UHGV virus genome: UHGV-0231292
DNA length: 35,493 nt
DNA from: a virus
Strand: one strand, 5' to 3'
Below the pieces are notes generated by a model. It did no database searches. It was not told where the DNA came from and was given only the letters and a program-made list of their open reading frames with translations. Positions 4,821-13,341 of the stretch are shown in pieces (the stretch's first letter is position 1; the number at the start of each line of letters is the position of its first letter). A program made the position numbers and the translations under genes.

Positions 4821-5210
4821 ATGATTGACGCTCATGACTTCACAAGATGGGTGCGCACACAGGACCCCCGTCTGGCTCCCGTTCTTCAGGGATTATTTGA
4901 TCTCTACATCCGTGGTCGTGACAACAGAGCACGCACCACAAAACCGGAGAATGCAGACACCCTTTATTTCACAGTAGACGACTGCTACCGCGTGGACTTC
5001 ACACCACACGGGCTGGCGTTGCACTGCCTGACACCACACGGCGAATCACTGCTGGCGTATTACGACTCCCCGGCCTCCATATTTGCGGCAATGCTGGCGC
5101 ATCGCACTGCTGGCGGGTGTGCCTCGCTGAGTGAATACTCCGCTGAATTTAACCGCCTTTCCGCCCTCTTCTCACAGGAGTGGCAGCGCGTGACGGGATA
5201 CCAGCCATGA
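4821..5210 (+). CDS. Hypothetical early protein immediately upstream of A
   Basis: 129 aa ORF; its stop overlaps the A start (ATGA). Confidence 0.45.
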   Translation: MIDAHDFTRWVRTQDPRLAPVLQGLFDLYIRGRDNRARTTKPENADTLYFTVDDCYRVDFTPHGLALHCLTPHGESLLAYYDSPASIFAAMLAHRTAGGCASLSEYSAEFNRLSALFSQEWQRVTGYQP

Positions 5211-8047
5211 GTGCGTTTGCATGGAGCTGGAATGAACCACGGCCAGCCATTGATCCGGCCAGATTTACGGAGCGCAGGCAGGAAACTGAAACCGACCTGC
5301 AACGCGCCATCCGTTACTACCTTGAGGCAAACAAAAGGGCACAGGAAGAACAGGAAGCGAAGGAAGAAGCCTTTTTCGCACAATCCACCGTGGGTAAAAA
5401 ACTCATGGCATCCCTTGAGGAAGCCGGACAGCGTGAAAAGCTGGCACAAAGCATCATCAGCAAGCGTCAGGCAACAGAACAAGACCCGGTGGCCCGTGCT
5501 TTTGCCACACTGAAGGTGCTTCCCGTTTATCTGCGTGAACCTCTGAGCCGCCACCTCTCTTTTCTGCGCAAGAAGCAGGAAGCCGATCGTCAGAAAGGCA
5601 AAAAGAGCTGGCAGGCTGAACGCTACGCGCGCGGAACCCTGCGCAAAATATTCGAACGTCTGGACCGCACCGACAGCCGCTGGCTGACACCGGGCTATCG
5701 CTCCCTTGCCGGACGCGAACGCCTGGACGATTTGCTTTACCTGCCGCAGCTCAACAAACACCAGATACAGACGCTGGCCACCATGACGGCGGCGATGTTC
5801 AGTGGCACTTTTGAAAAACTCTGCGATGGCTTTGGCGCGACCGATGGCGAGCTGACCATGGATGTAACGCTGAAGGCGTATCAGATGCTGGCCCGCATGG
5901 CGTTACACCTGCACGCTATGCCTCCACATTATGACGCTCTGACAACAGACAAAGACCGGAGGAATGAACCGGACACGGAGCTGCTGCCGGGCGCAATCCT
6001 TCGCCTGACCTGTGCGGAATGGTGGAAACGCAAACTGTGGCTGTTACGTTGCGAGTGGAGAGAAGAACAACTCCGCGCCGCCTGTCTGGTTTCCAGAAAA
6101 ACATCACCCTATCTGAGCCAGGACGCGTTAAGCGAGTTTCGCGCACAGCGCGAGAAAACACGCGATTTCCTGAAAAGTTTCATGCTGGAAAACGAAGACG
6201 GGTTCACGATTGATCTCGAGACAGTGTATTACGCGGGAGTAAGTAACCCGATTCACCGTAAGGCAGAAATGATGGCCACCATGAAGGGGCTGGAACTTCT
6301 GGCCGAAGCCCGTGGCGACAGAGCGGTGTTTCTGACTGTCACCTGCCCGTCAAAATACCACGCCACAACAGAGAACGGTCATCCGAATCCCAAATGGAAC
6401 GGGGCCACCATGCGCGACTCCAGCGATTACCTGGTTAACACGTTTTTTGCGGCGGTCCGCAAGAAACTGAACCGCGACGGCCTGCGCTGGTATGGCATCC
6501 GCACGGTGGAGCCTCACCATGACGGCACCGTGCACTGGCATATGATGGTCTTTGCTCATCCGGAAGAAATCGACACCATTGTGTCCCACACCCGCGATAT
6601 TGCCATTCAGGAAGACCGCCACGAGCTGGGCAATGATATTACTCCGCGCTTTAAGGTGGAGTATGTCGACGGCTCAAAAGGCACGCCAACCAGCTACATC
6701 GCCACCTACATCGGAAAGAACCTGGACAGCCGCGCCGTGGATGGCATCGACCCGAAAACGGGCAAGCCACGCGTTGACCACGAAACCGGAAAATCAATGG
6801 CCGAGAGCGTGGAACGCGCCATCGGCTGGGCACGCCTTCACCGGGTCCGCCAGTTCCAGTTCTTTGGCATCCCCTCCCGTCAGGTATGGCGTGAACTCCG
6901 CCGCCTTGCCAGCCAGATGGCACGCAACCCGGAAGGCCCACAACGGCTGAAGGATGATGCAATGGATGCGGTACTCGCTGCCGCTGATGCCGGGTGTTTT
7001 GCCACCTACATTGAGAAACAGGGCGGCGTACTTGTTCCACGCAAAGACTACCTGATTCGCACCGCCTACGACCTCGCAGATGAGCTGAACGATTACGGCG
7101 AACAGAGCGTACAGATTTACGGGATCTGGTCACCACTCATCGGGGAATCCTCCCGTGTGTGCACGCACCCGGATAACTGGAAGCTAGTAAGACGTAAACC
7201 GGAAGCGGAAGACAGCACCCGCGAAAATGGTTTTGACCTTCAGGGCGGCCCTGCCGCCCCTTGGACTCGTGGCAATAACTGTCCCCGTGTACAGGAAACG
7301 GACAACAACGGGACAGAACAGCCGGAAGAAAGGCCAGCACCGTGGCCGCAGCTTCCTGACGGCGTTGACGTGAATGAATGGATGCGCTCACTGAAACGGC
7401 ACGAACGCCGGGCGCTGATGCGTTCGCTGCGTGACAAACAGGCAAAAAACAGCAGTGATGAAATGCAGAACTGGACACAGAGCCGCAAACAGCCACGGCC
7501 TTTGCCTGATAACCACGAGTTACTCGCTAAAGAATGGCGGGAGTCTGCTGAATCTCTCGGCCTGCATATCGGTGAACAGCAGATGCAGCACCTGTTACGG
7601 GGCGGCAGTCTGTACGTTGACGGCAGCATCATTGCACCGCAGGGATTTGAAATTGTACGCAAACCAGATACCCGCCCGGACAGCCGAATCACGCAACTCT
7701 GGCAGCGCCTGAGCCGTAATCACGGCGTAAGCAGCACGGAGATCCGCCATAACCCGGTCGCCAGCTATCTGGAACAGCTGGGGGCATCAGACCCCGAAGC
7801 CGCCGCACACCTGGCATCCACACTTCAGCAGGACCAGAACACCATGAAAACCCCCGTTACCGTGCTTTCTGACATGCTGCGCGCCATCCGTGACGCAGTG
7901 CACGCACAGAGAATCAGTGAAACCACTGAACGCGCCCACCGCAAAGCAGACCTGCTGCGGGGTAGCCTGACCAGTGGAAACAAAAAACAGACAGAAACGG
8001 GACTCACAAATCCCGTAAATGAGCAAAAAACGTGCCGCGATATATGA
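5207..8047 (+). CDS. A: Rolling-circle replication initiator (P2 gpA-like HUH endonuclease)
   Basis: HUH motif VHWHMMVF and paired tyrosines SYIATYIGKN (Y-x3-Y) as in phiX174/P2 A-type initiators; start set to the ATG at 5207 rather than the upstream GTG. Confidence 0.85.
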   Translation: MSAFAWSWNEPRPAIDPARFTERRQETETDLQRAIRYYLEANKRAQEEQEAKEEAFFAQSTVGKKLMASLEEAGQREKLAQSIISKRQATEQDPVARAFATLKVLPVYLREPLSRHLSFLRKKQEADRQKGKKSWQAERYARGTLRKIFERLDRTDSRWLTPGYRSLAGRERLDDLLYLPQLNKHQIQTLATMTAAMFSGTFEKLCDGFGATDGELTMDVTLKAYQMLARMALHLHAMPPHYDALTTDKDRRNEPDTELLPGAILRLTCAEWWKRKLWLLRCEWREEQLRAACLVSRKTSPYLSQDALSEFRAQREKTRDFLKSFMLENEDGFTIDLETVYYAGVSNPIHRKAEMMATMKGLELLAEARGDRAVFLTVTCPSKYHATTENGHPNPKWNGATMRDSSDYLVNTFFAAVRKKLNRDGLRWYGIRTVEPHHDGTVHWHMMVFAHPEEIDTIVSHTRDIAIQEDRHELGNDITPRFKVEYVDGSKGTPTSYIATYIGKNLDSRAVDGIDPKTGKPRVDHETGKSMAESVERAIGWARLHRVRQFQFFGIPSRQVWRELRRLASQMARNPEGPQRLKDDAMDAVLAAADAGCFATYIEKQGGVLVPRKDYLIRTAYDLADELNDYGEQSVQIYGIWSPLIGESSRVCTHPDNWKLVRRKPEAEDSTRENGFDLQGGPAAPWTRGNNCPRVQETDNNGTEQPEERPAPWPQLPDGVDVNEWMRSLKRHERRALMRSLRDKQAKNSSDEMQNWTQSRKQPRPLPDNHELLAKEWRESAESLGLHIGEQQMQHLLRGGSLYVDGSIIAPQGFEIVRKPDTRPDSRITQLWQRLSRNHGVSSTEIRHNPVASYLEQLGASDPEAAAHLASTLQQDQNTMKTPVTVLSDMLRAIRDAVHAQRISETTERAHRKADLLRGSLTSGNKKQTETGLTNPVNEQKTCRDI

Positions 8048-8072
8048 AGCGCGCACAAAACAGGCAAAAGCG

Positions 8073-8086
8073 GGATTTAAAAATCC
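8073..8086. promoter_or_regulatory. Palindrome GGATTT-AA-AAATCC upstream of the parM-like gene (candidate operator/centromere)
   Basis: Inverted repeat read directly in the 76-bp A to parM-like spacer. Confidence 0.3.
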
Positions 8087-8123
8087 TGTAACCGATTAAT
8101 TAATCAACACAAGGAAAAGCGAC

Positions 8124-9083
8124 ATGAAAATTTGTATCGACGACGGCTCCACCAACATCAAGCTGGCATGGACTGAGAACGGCGAACGCCGCAACGCCAT
8201 CAGCCCGAACAGCTTCAAGTCGGAATGGTCTGCGCCGTTCGGTGGCACGCAGCCCGCGAACTACATGCTTGATGGCGTGCGCTATGGTTTTGATCCGGTC
8301 AGCGATCGCTTTGTCCAGACGACCGACACGCAATACCAGTACAGCGATGTGAATATAATTGCCATTCATCACGCGCTGGTCAAATCAGGCATCACACCAC
8401 AGGAAGTGGATGTGGTTGTCACCCTGCCACTGAGCGAGTATTTCGATACAAACGCACAGCCGGACATGGCCAACATCAACCGCAAAAAAGCGAACGTCAT
8501 GCGCCCGGTGGAGTACCAGAACGGCGAAGCATTCACTATCCGTAACGTACGGGTTATGCCTGAATCCATTCCGGCTGGCTTTAAGGCACTGGCTGACATG
8601 AGTCCGTTTGAATCCCTGCTGATTGTGGATTTGGGCGGAACCACTCTGGATGTGGCAAAGGTTCAGGGGCAACTGGCAGGTATCAGCCAGGTGTTTTGCG
8701 ATCCACACGTGGGCGTTTCTCTGATGGCCGATGCCGTACTGTCGGTGATGGCCACTAACGGTATGCGCACCAGTCACCACATCGCCAATACCATTATCGA
8801 ACATCGCCATGATGAAGCCTGGCTGCGCCAGCACATCCACAATGACGCGCATTACGCCAGCCTGATGGCGGTTATTCGTGAAAAGGAAGAAACACTGAAA
8901 CAACGCGTGATCCGCGCGCTGGCGGGTTTTTCGGGTTACGGGCGGGTGATGGTTGTCGGTGGAGGGGCGGAGATTGTGGCACCCGCTATCCGCGAAGCCT
9001 GCGGAGTTAATGCGACTTTCATCGCGGACGGGGTGCCACAGTTTGCTCTGGTTAATGGGCTGTACGCAATGGACAAGGAGTAA
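8124..9083 (+). CDS. parM: Actin-like segregation ATPase (ParM/StbA family)
   Basis: 319 aa; hallmark motifs IDDGSTNIKL, YSDVN, VMPESIPAG, DLGGTTLD, VVGGGAE, LVNGLY match ParM/StbA as recalled. Confidence 0.75.
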   Translation: MKICIDDGSTNIKLAWTENGERRNAISPNSFKSEWSAPFGGTQPANYMLDGVRYGFDPVSDRFVQTTDTQYQYSDVNIIAIHHALVKSGITPQEVDVVVTLPLSEYFDTNAQPDMANINRKKANVMRPVEYQNGEAFTIRNVRVMPESIPAGFKALADMSPFESLLIVDLGGTTLDVAKVQGQLAGISQVFCDPHVGVSLMADAVLSVMATNGMRTSHHIANTIIEHRHDEAWLRQHIHNDAHYASLMAVIREKEETLKQRVIRALAGFSGYGRVMVVGGGAEIVAPAIREACGVNATFIADGVPQFALVNGLYAMDKE

Positions 9084-9087
9084 ACCA

Positions 9088-9399
9088 ATGACGACTCCAA
9101 CCAGACGGATAAGTTTCTATCTGAAGCCCACCGCCGTCAAGAACGAAGGAGAAGCATGCGCCTGGCTGGACAGCCTTACACCAGAAGCCCGCAAAAGCGG
9201 CCAACGCGTGGCTTTTCTGGCCGGGCTGGCACTTCTGAAAATGAATCCGGCAGAGGCTTATCGACTGGCTGCATGGGCTGGTGATGAAGCGTTATCAGTG
9301 ACACAAACCAGGACAGAACGCCCCGCATCACAGCCAGTATCAACCGCACAGATAACCAGTCAGATGGCCGGAAATATCCGGGCGTTATTTCCTGAATAA
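9088..9399 (+). CDS. parR: ParR/StbB-like DNA-binding adaptor
   Basis: 104 aa from the in-frame ATG directly after the parM-like stop; RRISFYLKP...LDSLTPEARKSGQRVAFLAGLALLKMNP...LFPE parallels plasmid R1 ParR as recalled. Confidence 0.55.
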   Translation: MTTPTRRISFYLKPTAVKNEGEACAWLDSLTPEARKSGQRVAFLAGLALLKMNPAEAYRLAAWAGDEALSVTQTRTERPASQPVSTAQITSQMAGNIRALFPE

Positions 9400-9462
9400 C
9401 ACAACATCAGGGCGAGTTCGCCCTGCTCTCCACCTCAGAACATAAACAAGGAGAACGACTTA

Positions 9463-10053
9463 ATGAGCGAAATCAACTATCAGGCATTACGTGAACGTTA
9501 TTCACCTGTGCCAGTACCGAAATGCCCTATTTGCGGCGAGGAAATGTCAATTCAGCGAATATCTGGAGCACAGGTTGTTTATGCCTGCTCCGGTTATGGT
9601 GATGATGGAGATTTCAAAATTGGCCGAACTCTTGCCGACGAACATTATGAAAAATCACGCGTAACAGTGTTGGATGTCGGGGATCCTGAAGTATTGGCGC
9701 TACTTGATTGGCTGGAAACCAAAGACAACCGAATCGCTGAACTGGAAAAAATCGCCACTGACTATGCACTTAAATTCCAGAAAGCACAGGACGCATTAAA
9801 GTATGCCGCTTTGCTGCATAGCAGGACGGCGCAACAAACAAATAATTTTGCAGTATCGCTTCCGGACATAAGCGAATATTTCATTAATGACGTATTTCAG
9901 CCCTTGCGATACGAGCGGGATGTTGAAAGAGCCATCATAAAGGCTGGCGGAAAAGCATTGTGGCAGGAGAAACACGAGGACAGAACGCATCAGTCCTGCG
10001 ATGTAAATCGTGGATGGTTTAGCCCACTGACGACAGATAAAAATAACACCTGA
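9463..10053 (+). CDS. Hypothetical protein with N-terminal Cys-rich (zinc-ribbon-like) segment and central helical region
   Basis: 196 aa; CPICGEE...YACSGYGDDGD then coiled-coil-like LALLDWLETKDNRIAELEKIATDYALKFQKAQDAL; strong RBS AAGGAGAA. Confidence 0.5.
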   Translation: MSEINYQALRERYSPVPVPKCPICGEEMSIQRISGAQVVYACSGYGDDGDFKIGRTLADEHYEKSRVTVLDVGDPEVLALLDWLETKDNRIAELEKIATDYALKFQKAQDALKYAALLHSRTAQQTNNFAVSLPDISEYFINDVFQPLRYERDVERAIIKAGGKALWQEKHEDRTHQSCDVNRGWFSPLTTDKNNT

Positions 10054-10092
10054 TCCCCCTCAAACCAGGGCGATAATCGCGCATCGCCCTGC

Positions 10093-10119
10093 TGCACAAT
10101 AGTGCACAAGTTTGCACAA
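10093..10119. repeat. Three direct TGCACAA repeats at exact 10-bp phasing (candidate protein-binding array near cos)
   Basis: cTGCACAAtagTGCACAAgttTGCACAAt read directly; a fourth TGCACAA lies at about 10185. Confidence 0.5.
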
Positions 10120-10162
10120 TTTTTTTGAACGACTTTTTACCCTTCCGGCCCGCATGGCGGCT

Positions 10163-10181
10163 GGATCCGTCAAGGATCCGT
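10163..10181. repeat. Tandem GGATCCGT direct repeat (11-bp period)
   Basis: GGATCCGTcaaGGATCCGT read directly. Confidence 0.4.
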
Positions 10182-10492
10182 GCGTGCACAAAAAAACGCG
10201 CTTTTTCTGCGCGCAGGTGACGGGGGAACAGCCCGCGTTTCAGGGGGTAAATAGCACTCCCTGAACGATGTCGCAGAGATACAACAGAATGGCTGTATTT
10301 CTCACGCTGAGCGTGAAAAAGACGTGAGGGCTTTTGATTTGATGGGGTGGCAGATAAGGCCGTCAAAATCGCACTGAGGCGGCGAAAACATGCAGTCAGC
10401 GCAGTGGGATTGCGTAAGAGTCTGACCGTCGATGATGGCAATAAGCAGGAAAGCGTCGTGAAATTATCTGATTGATACAGGAGCTGGAGAGT

Positions 10493-10517
10493 CGGGGCAT
10501 AAATTTTTTATGCCCCG
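10493..10517 (-). terminator. Stem-loop just downstream of Q on the minus strand (possible operon terminator)
   Basis: CGGGGCAT-loop(AAATTTTTT)-ATGCCCCG inverted repeat; no clear U-run, so weak. Confidence 0.3.
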
Positions 10518-10543
10518 GCGAAGCAGCAGACAAGCGAAGCGCG

Positions 10544-11590
10544 TCAGGATGTGGGCTGGGTGTCTAACAGTGCGTAAGGGTTAAAGCGGATCACCTCTTC
10601 GCCAAGCCAGTCATTGATGTGCTTCATGGCCTCCATGACAGGCATCAGCTCGTTAATTGCGTAAACCCGCGCGGCCTTCTCCACATCACCAAACGCACTT
10701 TTTTCGCCCGGCATCGCCCCCATCAGTTGCGGCGGAACGCGGTGCGCAGCCAGCACATCATCACGGGATGCCGCCTTAACATTCATGAACTCATCTTTTG
10801 CGGTGATCTGCTGGAACGGCAAAATTTGCACCCCCTCTTTGCCCCCGTTGGGCGCATGAATGAGCACGTTTTTAAATGCACCACCACCACGCGCACCCTG
10901 TAACGTTTCTTTCAGGGAGTCCATGCTTTCGCGGTTTACCTGCGCTGCACCGATGTAGATGATGCACCCGGCGTGGGATCCGTTGTCGTAGTACAGTTTT
11001 CTGAACATGTCCGCCGAATGAGAAAGGCTGGCCGAGAGTAATGCGCCAAGATATTCCGGCATGCCGTAGATTTCCTGGTTAATATCCGGATTCATCAGGT
11101 GGCACACTTTGCCAGGGCGAAACTGGAACGCGTCCTTGCCATCCTGCACATACCACCATGATTCAAGATCGCTTCCGCGTCGCATGTATTTCGCCAGGGC
11201 GTGCCGTAATTTAAGCGGTTCGCCGAGCATATTGCTACGAAGCTCAAGGAATGCGTTACCGAACACAAACCAGTCCAGCGCCAGCGCCGAGAAATCCTGC
11301 CGGGAAAACAGCGGGTGCGGGATGTAGCAACCGAGTAATACATTGCGCTTAAAGTAAAGCGCAGACTGATGCCAGGACGTTTGCCGGGCAGCTCTTGCCA
11401 GACCGTACCAGTCCACCGGGGTTTCATACCACCGCCCGTTATCAGCACAGTACATATTATCCAGCAGGTCATGCCCGGTCAGGCGATAAGGACCATCAAA
11501 TGTGAATGCACTGAGCGATGATTCTTTCCTGAGCGCATCAGCGAGATCAATGCGTGAACTCATGCGCACTTTTTTATTTTTTCTGCTCAT
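10544..11590 (-). CDS. Q: Portal protein (P2 gpQ-like)
   Basis: 348 aa; size, position and N-terminal pattern (basic N-terminus then FTFDGP...W) match P2 Q; cotranscribed with P. Confidence 0.9.
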   Translation of the reverse strand: MSRKNKKVRMSSRIDLADALRKESSLSAFTFDGPYRLTGHDLLDNMYCADNGRWYETPVDWYGLARAARQTSWHQSALYFKRNVLLGCYIPHPLFSRQDFSALALDWFVFGNAFLELRSNMLGEPLKLRHALAKYMRRGSDLESWWYVQDGKDAFQFRPGKVCHLMNPDINQEIYGMPEYLGALLSASLSHSADMFRKLYYDNGSHAGCIIYIGAAQVNRESMDSLKETLQGARGGGAFKNVLIHAPNGGKEGVQILPFQQITAKDEFMNVKAASRDDVLAAHRVPPQLMGAMPGEKSAFGDVEKAARVYAINELMPVMEAMKHINDWLGEEVIRFNPYALLDTQPTS

Positions 11591-13341
11591 CAGAACTCCA
11601 TAACCGTGAAACGCTCGTTTTCTCCTTCGCCGCCAATCGGTTCGTTAATGACAGCAAGCATGGTTGCCCACGCAAGGTCGCCGTGGCTGATCCCCCTCGC
11701 TCGGTCCGTTTCGTAAGTGATAAAGCCGCCCGGTGTTTTCACCTTACGCACGGCGTTAAAGGCCGCGACCAGCTCGCGTTCGGCGCGATCGTATTCCCAC
11801 CGCCCGGCACGCATTATTTGCAGCATTTTCAGTACCAGCGACCGTTTTGATGACAGCGTGAAGGTGTACGGAATAGCAGCAGGGAAAAACCGTTTCACTA
11901 TCTGATAAACAGCCTCCCCGTTCCCGCCCGTCACATCAATGCCGATGTGTTCCACGTTATAGCGACACGTGAACTCTTCAATGACTCTGGCCTGTTCTTC
12001 AAACTCCAGCCCCTGAACGCGTCGCGTCTCCACCGTTCGAAAACGGCCACCAGGAACAGCCGGAGGAACCACCACGGACACAGCACCGCTGTCGCCGTTG
12101 CCACTGCTGCCGTTTGCGTCATACCCAATCCATACCGGACGATTCCCCATCGGGCGGGGAGCAAAAGGTTTCCAGTCTTTCCAGTCGTCGTATCCGTCAA
12201 CACCGCAGCCAATCAGGATATTCAGGTTAAATGCCGATTCCCCTTCGCGGACAAACTCACACATATAGAGATTGAGGAACTCGTCTTCGGTGTTTTCATC
12301 ACGAATTTCGTCGATATCGGTGTGTTTCCAGCCGTGATTAACCACATCTTCCAGCGTGACAATTTGCCGCCAAGTCCGGTCAGGGCAGATAAGCCCGTTA
12401 TGCAGCGTTTTCCAGTCCACAGAAAAACGCTGGCGTTTATGCGAAGCCTTTTTCTCGTTCCAGCGGTCGCCGTTCCAGTAGGCGTACGCCTCGTGCGTTT
12501 CGGTGGATGGCGTGGAGAAGTAGGTGCGCCGCAGTCCGCTGAGGGTTGCCATAGCGCCAGCCACCTTGCGCAGTTCAGCAAAGCGACTGACCCAGAAAAA
12601 TTCATCAAAATAAAAATTGCCCGTATAGGACTGTGCCGACGCAGCAGAAGTGCCGAGAAAATGCAGCTCTGCGCCGTTGGAGAGGATGATTTTATCGCCC
12701 CCTTTCAGCTCCACATCAACTTCAGCCGCGACCTTCTGAATAATGCTTTTAAACTGGAACGCCTGACGACGCGACGCAGACAAAAAAATCTGGTTACGCT
12801 GGTAAGGTTGCGCCACATCGTCACGCAGCGCCATCAGCAGAGCTTCCTGTGCAAAATACCAGGTCGCCCCAATCTGTCGGGATTTCAGGATCATCCTGTT
12901 ACGTATCCCGGCTTCCCTGCAAAGTGTCAGGGAGTCAAACCAGCCCCGCTGATGCCACTCCAGCCTGCTGATGATTTTTTCCCGCAGTGCGGCAATCTGT
13001 TCCGGCGTGAAATGATTTTTAAGTTTTTTCGCCCGGCCTTTCTTTCCTGCGGCCATCACATCCGGCTGGCCATCATGCAGCTTTTTAAGCTGCCGGGTCA
13101 GCAGGTCTATTTCCTTAAAGTCACCGCCTGTTTTATTCTGTTTTTCAGTAAGCTGGATGAGGCGCGCATCGATGGACTGCGTGACACGCTGCACGGGGGG
13201 CGTTTCATCCCACTGGTCGCGTTTTTTCCACGCATAAATCGTGTTCGGGTTTATTCCCATCAGACGTGATATTTCTGCGGGCGGATAACCCTGCCAGTAA
13301 AGTTGCCGCGCACGCTGGCGCACAAAAGCGTCCTGAATCAT
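11590..13341 (-). CDS. P: Terminase large subunit / ATPase (P2 gpP-like)
   Basis: 583 aa; N-terminus MIQDAFVRQRARQLYWQGYPPAEISRLMGINPNTIYAWKKRDQWDE characteristic of P2 P. Confidence 0.9.
   Translation of the reverse strand: MIQDAFVRQRARQLYWQGYPPAEISRLMGINPNTIYAWKKRDQWDETPPVQRVTQSIDARLIQLTEKQNKTGGDFKEIDLLTRQLKKLHDGQPDVMAAGKKGRAKKLKNHFTPEQIAALREKIISRLEWHQRGWFDSLTLCREAGIRNRMILKSRQIGATWYFAQEALLMALRDDVAQPYQRNQIFLSASRRQAFQFKSIIQKVAAEVDVELKGGDKIILSNGAELHFLGTSAASAQSYTGNFYFDEFFWVSRFAELRKVAGAMATLSGLRRTYFSTPSTETHEAYAYWNGDRWNEKKASHKRQRFSVDWKTLHNGLICPDRTWRQIVTLEDVVNHGWKHTDIDEIRDENTEDEFLNLYMCEFVREGESAFNLNILIGCGVDGYDDWKDWKPFAPRPMGNRPVWIGYDANGSSGNGDSGAVSVVVPPAVPGGRFRTVETRRVQGLEFEEQARVIEEFTCRYNVEHIGIDVTGGNGEAVYQIVKRFFPAAIPYTFTLSSKRSLVLKMLQIMRAGRWEYDRAERELVAAFNAVRKVKTPGGFITYETDRARGISHGDLAWATMLAVINEPIGGEGENERFTVMEF

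Follow-up and report, generated by a model that had tools for sequence, protein, structure and literature searches.

The window analysed here, a stretch of 35,493 nucleotides, is a P88-like prophage of Escherichia coli (Xuanwuvirus, Peduoviridae, P2-like). Over the region of interest it shares 100% identity with E. coli SCU-124 (NZ_CP051706) and 99.5% with phage P88_4B11. Its gene order is a gpA-like gene, a parM-like gene, parP, a gene encoding a 196-aa protein and a conserved non-coding stretch, followed by the portal and terminase genes on the minus strand (Table 1). Two stem-loops, designated H1 and H2, lie on either side of the 196-aa gene. In E. coli genomes the left-flank homology spans parP, and when GTDB genomes were scanned with ParP only three close relatives were returned. 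To the right of H2, the border formed by the TGCACAA repeats and the T7 run is invariant in all relatives, and the terminator-like GTGCA-N6-TGCAC with AAT7 within it folds at only -6.1 kcal/mol, which is not significant. The stretch to the right of H2 is probably the packaging site, given that the ends of the linear P88_4B11 genome map to 10137/10138.

Table 1. Genes and sequence features surrounding the 196-aa gene, with positions in the window.
Feature	Position	Strand	Basis and remarks
gpA-like replication gene	5180-8047		ORF
parM-like partition ATPase gene	8124..9083	+	ORF; 'plasmid segregation protein ParM' in P88 and relatives; backbone left of the hotspot
parP (Plasmid_stab_B)	9088..9399	+	PF10784, E = 7.8e-23; 312-nt CDS in P88
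parP stop codon	9397-9399		Left anchor of the variable region
H1, left-border stem-loop of the cargo slot	9408..9425		Sequence and fold; 8 nt past the parP stop
Leader, 37 nt, with Shine-Dalgarno AAGGAG at 9448-9453	9426..9462	+	Sequence
Ead/Ea22-like gene, 196 aa, the cargo here	9463..10053	+	PF13935; RefSeq 'ead/Ea22-like family protein'
H2, right-border stem-loop joined to the cos-side flank	10066..10091		Sequence and fold; 12 nt past the Ea22-like stop
Conserved right border: three TGCACAA repeats (10-bp period), then T7	10093..10126	+	Repeat positions
Weak terminator-like GTGCA-N6-TGCAC and AAT7	10102-10126	+	Terminator consensus scan
Putative cos cleavage region	10137..10138		Aligns with both ends of the linear P88_4B11 record; about 46 nt right of H2
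Portal (gpQ-like) gene	10544..11590	-	ORF; annotated as portal in all relatives; backbone right of the hotspot

Both H1 and H2 are solid as hairpins. H1 is CAGGGCG-AGTT-CGCCCTG, with a 7-bp stem (six G-C pairs) and a 4-nt loop, and folds at -13.0 kcal/mol (z -4.3); H2 is CAGGGCGAT-AATCGCGC-ATCGCCCTG, with a 9-bp stem and an 8-nt loop, and folds at -15.6 kcal/mol (z -3.7). In both cases none of 200 shuffles was equally stable. The original prediction had located H1 at 9408-9425 with exactly this sequence, which agrees with what is found; its hairpin at H2 is also real, but the coordinates 10067-10092 that it assigned lie one base too far to the right (10066-10091). The 7-bp core that it described as common to the two stems is borne out, and the identity is in fact longer, given that CAGGGCGA (8 nt) and TCGCCCTGCT (10 nt) occur in the same order in H1 and H2. 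H2 also holds an internal partial duplication, ATCGC-GC-ATCGC. An Rfam search of 9000-10700 at permissive E-values gave no credible match at either hairpin.

With respect to transcription termination, both hairpins are GC-rich stem-loops that follow soon after a stop codon. A run of U on the 3' side of the stem is absent from the plus strand for both H1 and H2, where the tails read CTCTCCACCT and CTGCACAATA, respectively, and the terminator consensus scan flags neither. In the same scan H1 is terminator-like on the minus strand only, where it has the U-rich tail ATGTTGTGTT; the minus-strand tail of H2 is GTTTGAGGGG. Given that neither hairpin has a U-tract on the plus strand, a strict terminator label is unsupported for that orientation.

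The protein encoded between the hairpins belongs to PF13935, with 110.7 bits against a gathering cut-off of 27 (E = 1.1e-31, residues 2-140). It matched no PADLOC model and no PDB sequence, and it has no recognised defence domain. Its C-terminal third has no match to solved structures and, among phage records, is seen only in P88_4B11. Comparison with relatives shows the gene to be mosaic (breakpoints near 9834 and 9721); lambdoid and P22-like phages have only short or N-terminal segments in common with this gene region. H1 and the first two thirds of the gene occur without H2, and elsewhere the Ea22-like gene occupies third place in an operon, its start overlapping the previous stop, and has no hairpin upstream. 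A promoter-like site on the plus strand was looked for in 8000-11000 and none was found; since the gene has only its 37-nt leader, without a promoter, it would be transcribed through H1 from upstream. Part of the leader, ACATAAACAAGGRG, is common to the unrelated first gene of P88-type cargos. Pairing of an anti-Shine-Dalgarno CUCUC (9427-9431) with the ribosome-binding site, as seen in the MFE fold, was considered for the leader and dropped because the P88-type leader does not conserve it. Lambda ea22 is of the same PF13935 family (PMC7093339, PMC10834534) and early-operon transcription would be expected here likewise, but the present gene lies in a P2-like phage and not in the exo-xis region of a lambdoid phage.

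The extent of the variable region is determined by where homology with other prophages ends. On the left, homology with hundreds of E. coli prophages stops at 9425-9428, which is the 3' end of H1, and on the right it resumes at 10092-10094, just past H2. From parP to the conserved flank GCACAATAGTGCACAA, the gene content of relatives is quite different. Loci anchored at the end of parP fall into more than 30 cargo length classes, and at least six different first genes are present among those examined. The whole arrangement of H1, gene and H2 is found in 134 of the 5426 E. coli genomes, at about one copy per genome.

According to the original prediction, similar structures on both sides of a gene can mark the boundary of a mobile cassette, to be checked by the presence or absence of the gene together with the hairpins in related prophages and by a search for the hairpin motif elsewhere in the host genome; hairpins that occur independently of the gene were named there as evidence against it. 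Independent occurrence is what was found. Each hairpin exists without the other and without the gene, with H1 only in 22 loci of a metagenome sample, both hairpins in 6 and H2 without an exact H1 in 4. There are no dispersed copies in host genomes, where the motif occurs about once per genome and always in this prophage type. No H1/H2 hybrid joined to GCACAA, as expected of an empty site, was present in an exact-pattern scan of IMG/VR (0 matches), and a synthetic empty-site query against E. coli genomes gave two-piece matches only, among the matches listed. A near-empty variant does occur (L114, L124); it goes back to a deletion between two identical copies of the 11-mer CATCAGGGCGC, and the left arm of H1 is one of these copies. 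What stands of the cassette proposal is that both hairpins edge an exchangeable region. The hairpins are retained with the phage backbone as the genes enclosed by them are exchanged, and they do not form the ends of a mobile cassette.

The behavior of H1 across relatives is that of a backbone element. Its stem follows the parP stop in 82 IMG/VR loci (exact-pattern scan), with cargos of 127 to 3695 bp behind it; over a dozen lengths and six or more gene contents are represented among these, on either strand. The genes found after H1 include the Ea22-like gene, an unrelated ClpX-zinc-finger gene (in P88 itself), a DUF4760 gene on the minus strand and others, among them those of a 3.7-kb cargo. 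The exact stem was also found in 28 loci of a separate metagenome sample anchored on the ParP protein, and a match to H1 is present in about 431 of the 5426 complete E. coli genomes (median 1, maximum 3 places per genome). The core is intact in approximately 55% of loci anchored at the end of parP, which is our own indirect estimate from the 120 IMG/VR matches listed, based on an intact core in 10 of 62 newly scanned loci and in nearly all loci found earlier.

Variation within H1 is concentrated in the loop, for which seven variants were seen (AGTT, CATC, TATT, TATC, AACT, GGTT and TGTT). It is the sequence of the stem, and not just its pairing, that is nearly invariant over more than 100 loci. 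Where the stem does change, pairing is kept: one locus (L294) has CAGGGCA/TGCCCTG, a compensatory change from G-C to A-U, three others have a G-U wobble (L160, L299 and L311), and one lineage has the variant CCAGGGCGG-AAA-CCGCCCTGG, with a compensated outer pair and no U-rich tail on either strand. RNAalifold recovers the H1 stem with one further compensatory outer pair and a loop of at least seven variants. The loop and the downstream leader reassort among cargo classes. Behind the minus-strand DUF4760 cargo, H1 lies 19 nt past the stop of that gene in one locus (L066) and about 40 nt past it in another (L031), and is then followed by AUGUUGUGUUAUU; in the latter locus the loop is inverted, AACT versus AGTT. 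In a ParP lineage of about 50% identity, the position of H1 is occupied either by a canonical terminator (AACACCC-TTCAC-GGGTG-T7, or AAAAGCATGGC-TTTC-GCCATGCTTTT) or by no hairpin and a tightly following plus-strand gene.

H2 behaves as one allele of the right border. It directly adjoins CTGCACAATAGTGCACAA in every locus examined and is matched in 175 of the 5426 E. coli genomes (median 1, maximum 2 places per genome). It lies behind four Ea22-like C-terminal contexts that differ in the surroundings of the stop codon, and in L294 two genes unrelated to Ea22 precede it, one of them with an HTH domain of the HVO_A0114/MarR type; in this locus the homology around H2 starts only at the stop codon. 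Four loci have H2 without H1 (L009, L020, L303 and L353). In other cargos, canonical terminators stand exactly at the position of H2, and these right-junction terminators read GAAGCGCC-GATAA-GGCGC-T7, AACGCCCT-CYTCC-AGGGCGTT-TATTT and AAAGCGCC-TCAG-GGGCGC-T5. When the phage collection was searched for a source of H2 beyond P88-like phages, the 3' part of the gene together with H2 matched P88_4B11 only.

Position and conserved pairing point to a role of the hairpins at the RNA level and of the terminator type. The suggestion in the original prediction that they may simply be two terminators fits their position and the canonical terminators found at the same junctions in variants, but not the lack of a U-tract on the coding strand. 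The reading that we favor, with a probability of roughly 0.65, is that H1 and H2 are independent, structure-conserved intergenic stem-loops that edge a cos-adjacent cargo hotspot of P88-like phages, the cargo being exchanged via the conserved flanks. H1 would be part of the backbone, following parM-parP and separating them from any cargo. For a minus-strand cargo, its placement and tail are those of an intrinsic terminator, and it may stop antisense transcription into parP; for a plus-strand cargo it would be read through and most likely serve as an intercistronic RNA-stability or 3'-end structure. H2 would be one allele of the right border, situated just before the packaging-site flank, where it may cap rightward cargo transcripts, with true termination nearby probably relying on the weak hairpin and T7 of the conserved flank. 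The cargo between the hairpins would be swapped by recombination using the conserved flanks, which places the hairpins outside any self-mobile unit.

A hotspot of this kind is known in P2-like phages of E. coli, next to cos and between gpA and gpQ, where P2 has its tin/old locus (Rousset et al. 2022, PMC9122126). It is also treated in a 2026 preprint (10.64898/2026.02.27.708500), in which the recombination processes are described as still in need of elucidation. The slot described here matches it in position, between the gpA-like and portal genes and next to the putative cos, and in variability, with variable gene content between conserved flanks in close relatives. As in the P2-like hotspot, the site lies between replication and portal genes, with conserved flanks and a content that varies among near-identical phages. 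In contrast with it, a parM-parP pair is found here between gpA and the slot, and the left border is, therefore, the parP stop and not gpA; the cargo is an Ea22-like gene of early type without a recognised defence domain. In a term search of PMC9122126 and 10.64898/2026.02.27.708500, neither text was found to mention hairpins or terminators at the borders of the slot.

In the P88-like branch, conserved, backbone-linked stem-loops frame the slot. Its borders can be given at the level of sequence: the left one consists of the parP stop and H1, the right one of the TGCACAA repeats preceded by H2 or a terminator. In this form they are usable for automatic extraction of cargos and for the design of exchange or insulation experiments at a locus where P2-like prophages keep a store of interchangeable accessory and defence genes. 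Hairpins resembling terminators are to be expected where modules join, and the finding is biologically modest. It is an ordinary one, in which the shared stem is a small curiosity.

Whether the stem shared by H1 and H2 is more than chance was evaluated at several levels. Against an expectation of 5.6, the window contains the heptamer 14 times, a number reached in none of 100 shuffles, and 4 of the 14 are hairpin arms; it is not enriched elsewhere in the regulatory regions of the window. When distinct perfect hairpins (stem of 7 bp or longer) were compared, a 7-nt 5' arm was common to a fraction of 0.0005 of the pairs from diverse viral contigs and 0.0018 of those from P88-like loci, which by our own correction for the approximately 25 hairpins in the window becomes roughly 0.01-0.04 for adjacent pairs. 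The gapped alignment of H1 and H2 scores 29.5 against 26 for the best unrelated window. The original prediction had counted on the two hairpins being related on alignment, and on this point the outcome is marginal, given that the gapped local score of the junctions is equalled in 22 of 590 background windows. The similarity between left and right junctions is likewise marginal in three H1-bearing classes (p about 0.01-0.04) and is absent in the other 13 representatives. The P88-type right-end terminator was also likened to the 3' end of parP (CAGGGCGTT(T)ATTTC), a candidate set aside for an equally marginal similarity.

When cargo classes are compared, the heptamer is concentrated near the ends of the slot and seldom found within the cargos. 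Its sites are H1, H2, the P88-type right-end terminator and the CATCAGGGCGC 11-mer about 75 nt from the right junction; it is present in about 2 of 12 independent right-end modules and absent in about 10 of the 12. A scan of viral contigs for CAGGGCG-N5-10-CGCCCTG gave at least 120 matches in unrelated contigs, and it is uninformative because a 14-base pattern is, by our own estimate, expected by chance. Overall, the shared core is mildly non-random and not compelling, and the shared stem is most likely a coincidence of GC-rich stems or an old duplication or microhomology scar. The near-invariant H1 core and the recurrence of the heptamer at cargo ends exceed what a purely structural role predicts. 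Another CAGGGCG hairpin lies inside gpA, at 7241-7259, in coding sequence.

The second of these origins can be considered as an explanation of its own, in which H2 is a diverged copy of H1 left as the scar of a duplication or of a microhomology junction when the right border was formed, with no function beyond that of a stable stem-loop. The order AATAACAC ... CAGGGCGA ... TCGCCCTGCT is common to both sites, the per-pair chance of sharing an arm is only 0.0005-0.002, microhomology at the same motif did yield a deletion, and the partial duplication inside H2 fits slippage. Nonetheless, the alignment score is just marginally over background, AATAACAC is coding sequence at either site and is not conserved where H2 occurs in other contexts, and no intermediate forms were found. 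We consider this origin rather unlikely.

More active roles in exchange were also considered for the heptamer. The CAGGGCG hairpins and the same heptamer in the P88-type right-end terminator could act as joints for module swapping, via palindromic microhomology or via single-strand hairpins formed in rolling-circle replication or after cos cleavage. This would give a concrete mechanism for the rapid exchange at cos-adjacent P2-like hotspots, and we judge it very unlikely. A stricter form, in which the hairpins are recombination sites of a cassette and a recombinase or a single-strand mechanism (rolling-circle replication) acts between the CAGGGCG palindromes as it does at attC or at IS200/IS605 ends, is highly improbable. 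The hairpins coincide with the homology breakpoints, the 8 + 10 nt that they share form direct repeats around the cargo, and the heptamers CAGGGCG/CGCCCTG are concentrated at the ends of cargos and seldom lie within them, all of which would suit such sites. The deletion between CATCAGGGCGC copies that gave the near-empty variant, the reassortment of loop and leader between classes, with the inverted loop of L031, and the unresolved mechanism of exchange stated for the hotspot in 10.64898/2026.02.27.708500 could be read in the same way. Against this, H1 and H2 show independent distributions across the metagenome sample (22/6/4 loci), and H2 is found in about 25% of loci with H1 versus about 17% of those without, which in our own count from the metagenome table was taken as not higher. 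Furthermore, about 10 of the 12 right-end modules are without the heptamer, most cargo classes have no flanking direct repeats or only insignificant ones, and the hybrid empty site is missing from IMG/VR and from the E. coli matches listed. Genes for a transposase, an IntI-type integrase or TnpA/TnpB are absent from the locus, and the Ea22-like gene is found in operons without an upstream hairpin.

The last alternative, that the CAGGGCG-N-CGCCCTG palindrome is a double-stranded DNA operator of a dimeric protein (ParR-like ParP or another phage regulator) for which H1 and H2 are two sites, can draw on the near-invariance of the stem against a variable loop and on the place of H1 immediately after the partition genes, but it is scarcely credible: half-sites are 4 nt apart in H1 and 12 nt apart between the same heptamers in H2, which makes them incompatible with one dimer geometry, CAGGGCA/TGCCCTG in L294 and the G-U wobbles keep RNA pairing and not a DNA half-site, the heptamer shows no enrichment in other regulatory regions of the window, and known ParMR centromeres are repeat arrays upstream of parM.

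The reading of H1 and H2 as border stem-loops of a cargo slot can also be set against known stem-loop elements. With 7-9 bp GC-rich stems, 4-8 nt loops, a distance of 8-12 nt from the stop codon and -13 to -16 kcal/mol, they resemble intrinsic terminators and REP-like stem-loops, and they differ from intrinsic terminators in lacking the plus-strand U-tract, the U-rich tail of H1 being on the minus strand only. Dispersed palindromes of the REP/BIME type were rejected, with H1 and H2 at about one copy per genome and in this prophage type only. An integron attC cassette was also rejected: no GTTRRRY core is visible at H1 or H2, none of the ORFs that overlap 8000-12000 encodes an integron-type integrase, other domains are found in the cargo genes checked, and the Ea22-like gene occurs in an operon without an upstream hairpin. 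An element of the IS200/IS605 type was rejected as well, with H1 and H2 being independent of each other, an Ea22-like gene as the sole gene between them and about one copy per genome.

A close counterpart of the locus is found in phage P88_4B11 (Xuanwuvirus P884B11, LR595891 / NC_049391), in which the gene is annotated as hypothetical only and the hairpins are unannotated. It has the same arrangement of parP, H1, Ea22-like gene and H2, and is 99.5% identical over 8000-10137; for H2 and the 3' portion of the gene the figure is 98.6%. Within H2 itself, a single base of the loop differs between the two phages, GCGC in the window being GCAC in P88_4B11.

The cargo that lies between the two hairpins is variable both within a gene and as a whole. 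The Ea22-like gene (9463-10053) is mosaic when compared with its relatives (L033, L027, L013 and L127), with homology breakpoints near 9834 and 9721. One and the same N-terminal part, composed of a zinc ribbon and a coiled coil, is found with at least four distinct C-terminal ends. In the metagenome contig SKEL01015133.1 (locus L294, approximately 400-1250), a variant of H1, the hairpin that follows parP, and H2, the hairpin at the right border of the slot, enclose an unrelated cargo of two genes. One of these codes for a 125-aa HTH protein of the HVO_A0114/MarR type and the other for a 124-aa protein that has no Pfam match. These two genes may form a toxin-antitoxin-like or defence pair.

The left border of the slot is itself subject to change among the relatives. 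Two IMG/VR loci, L114 and L124, have a near-empty slot of 87 nt at this hotspot, which results from a deletion between two identical 11-mers (CATCAGGGCGC), one copy being the left arm of H1 and the other lying close to where the final P88-type cargo gene ends on its 3' side. A different change is observed when L066 is compared with L031. The DUF4760 cargo, on the - strand, is identical in kind in these two loci, but the loop of H1 is inverted, AGTT versus AACT; the same is seen for L290 versus L291. In L031, the stem of H1 is also lengthened to 11 bp, with an adjoining indel of 22 nt. It looks as if the hairpin in these DUF4760 loci has been flipped or re-acquired.

The right edge of the slot is sharp and is formed by a stretch (10093-10126) that shows no variation among all relatives. 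It contains three direct TGCACAA repeats with a period of exactly 10 bp, followed by T7. The ends of the deposited P88_4B11 genome match approximately 10137/10138, and the stretch is approximately 10-45 nt away from this position. Within cos, it may serve as a subsite to which terminase binds.

Additional structures found between the slot and the portal gene and in the replication gene
Feature	Position	Strand	Location or remark
Perfect palindrome GGGGCATAAATTTTTTATGCCCC	10494-10516		28 nt beyond the portal stop
Canonical terminator GCGCGCAGAAAAAGCGCGT + T7	10196-10214	-	Between the putative cos and the slot
Repeat GGATCCGT	Copies at 10163 and 10174		
Hairpin CAGGGCGGCCCTGCCGCCC	7241-7259		Within the replication gene CDS; begins with the same CAGGGCG heptamer as H1 and H2

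On the other side of the slot, a ParM-like ATPase gene and a Plasmid_stab_B (ParR-like) gene (8124-9399) constitute a plasmid-type partition pair, which in this integrated P2-like prophage is located with the replication gene on one side and the cargo slot on the other. A parP with 91-94% amino acid identity is also present in two contigs of GTDB genomes, L160 and L162, whose titles give Vagococcus sp. WN89Y and Fredinandcohnia humi as the organisms, which most likely reflects enterobacterial contamination or mis-binning of those assemblies. L160 additionally contains H1 and the start of an Ea22-like gene.
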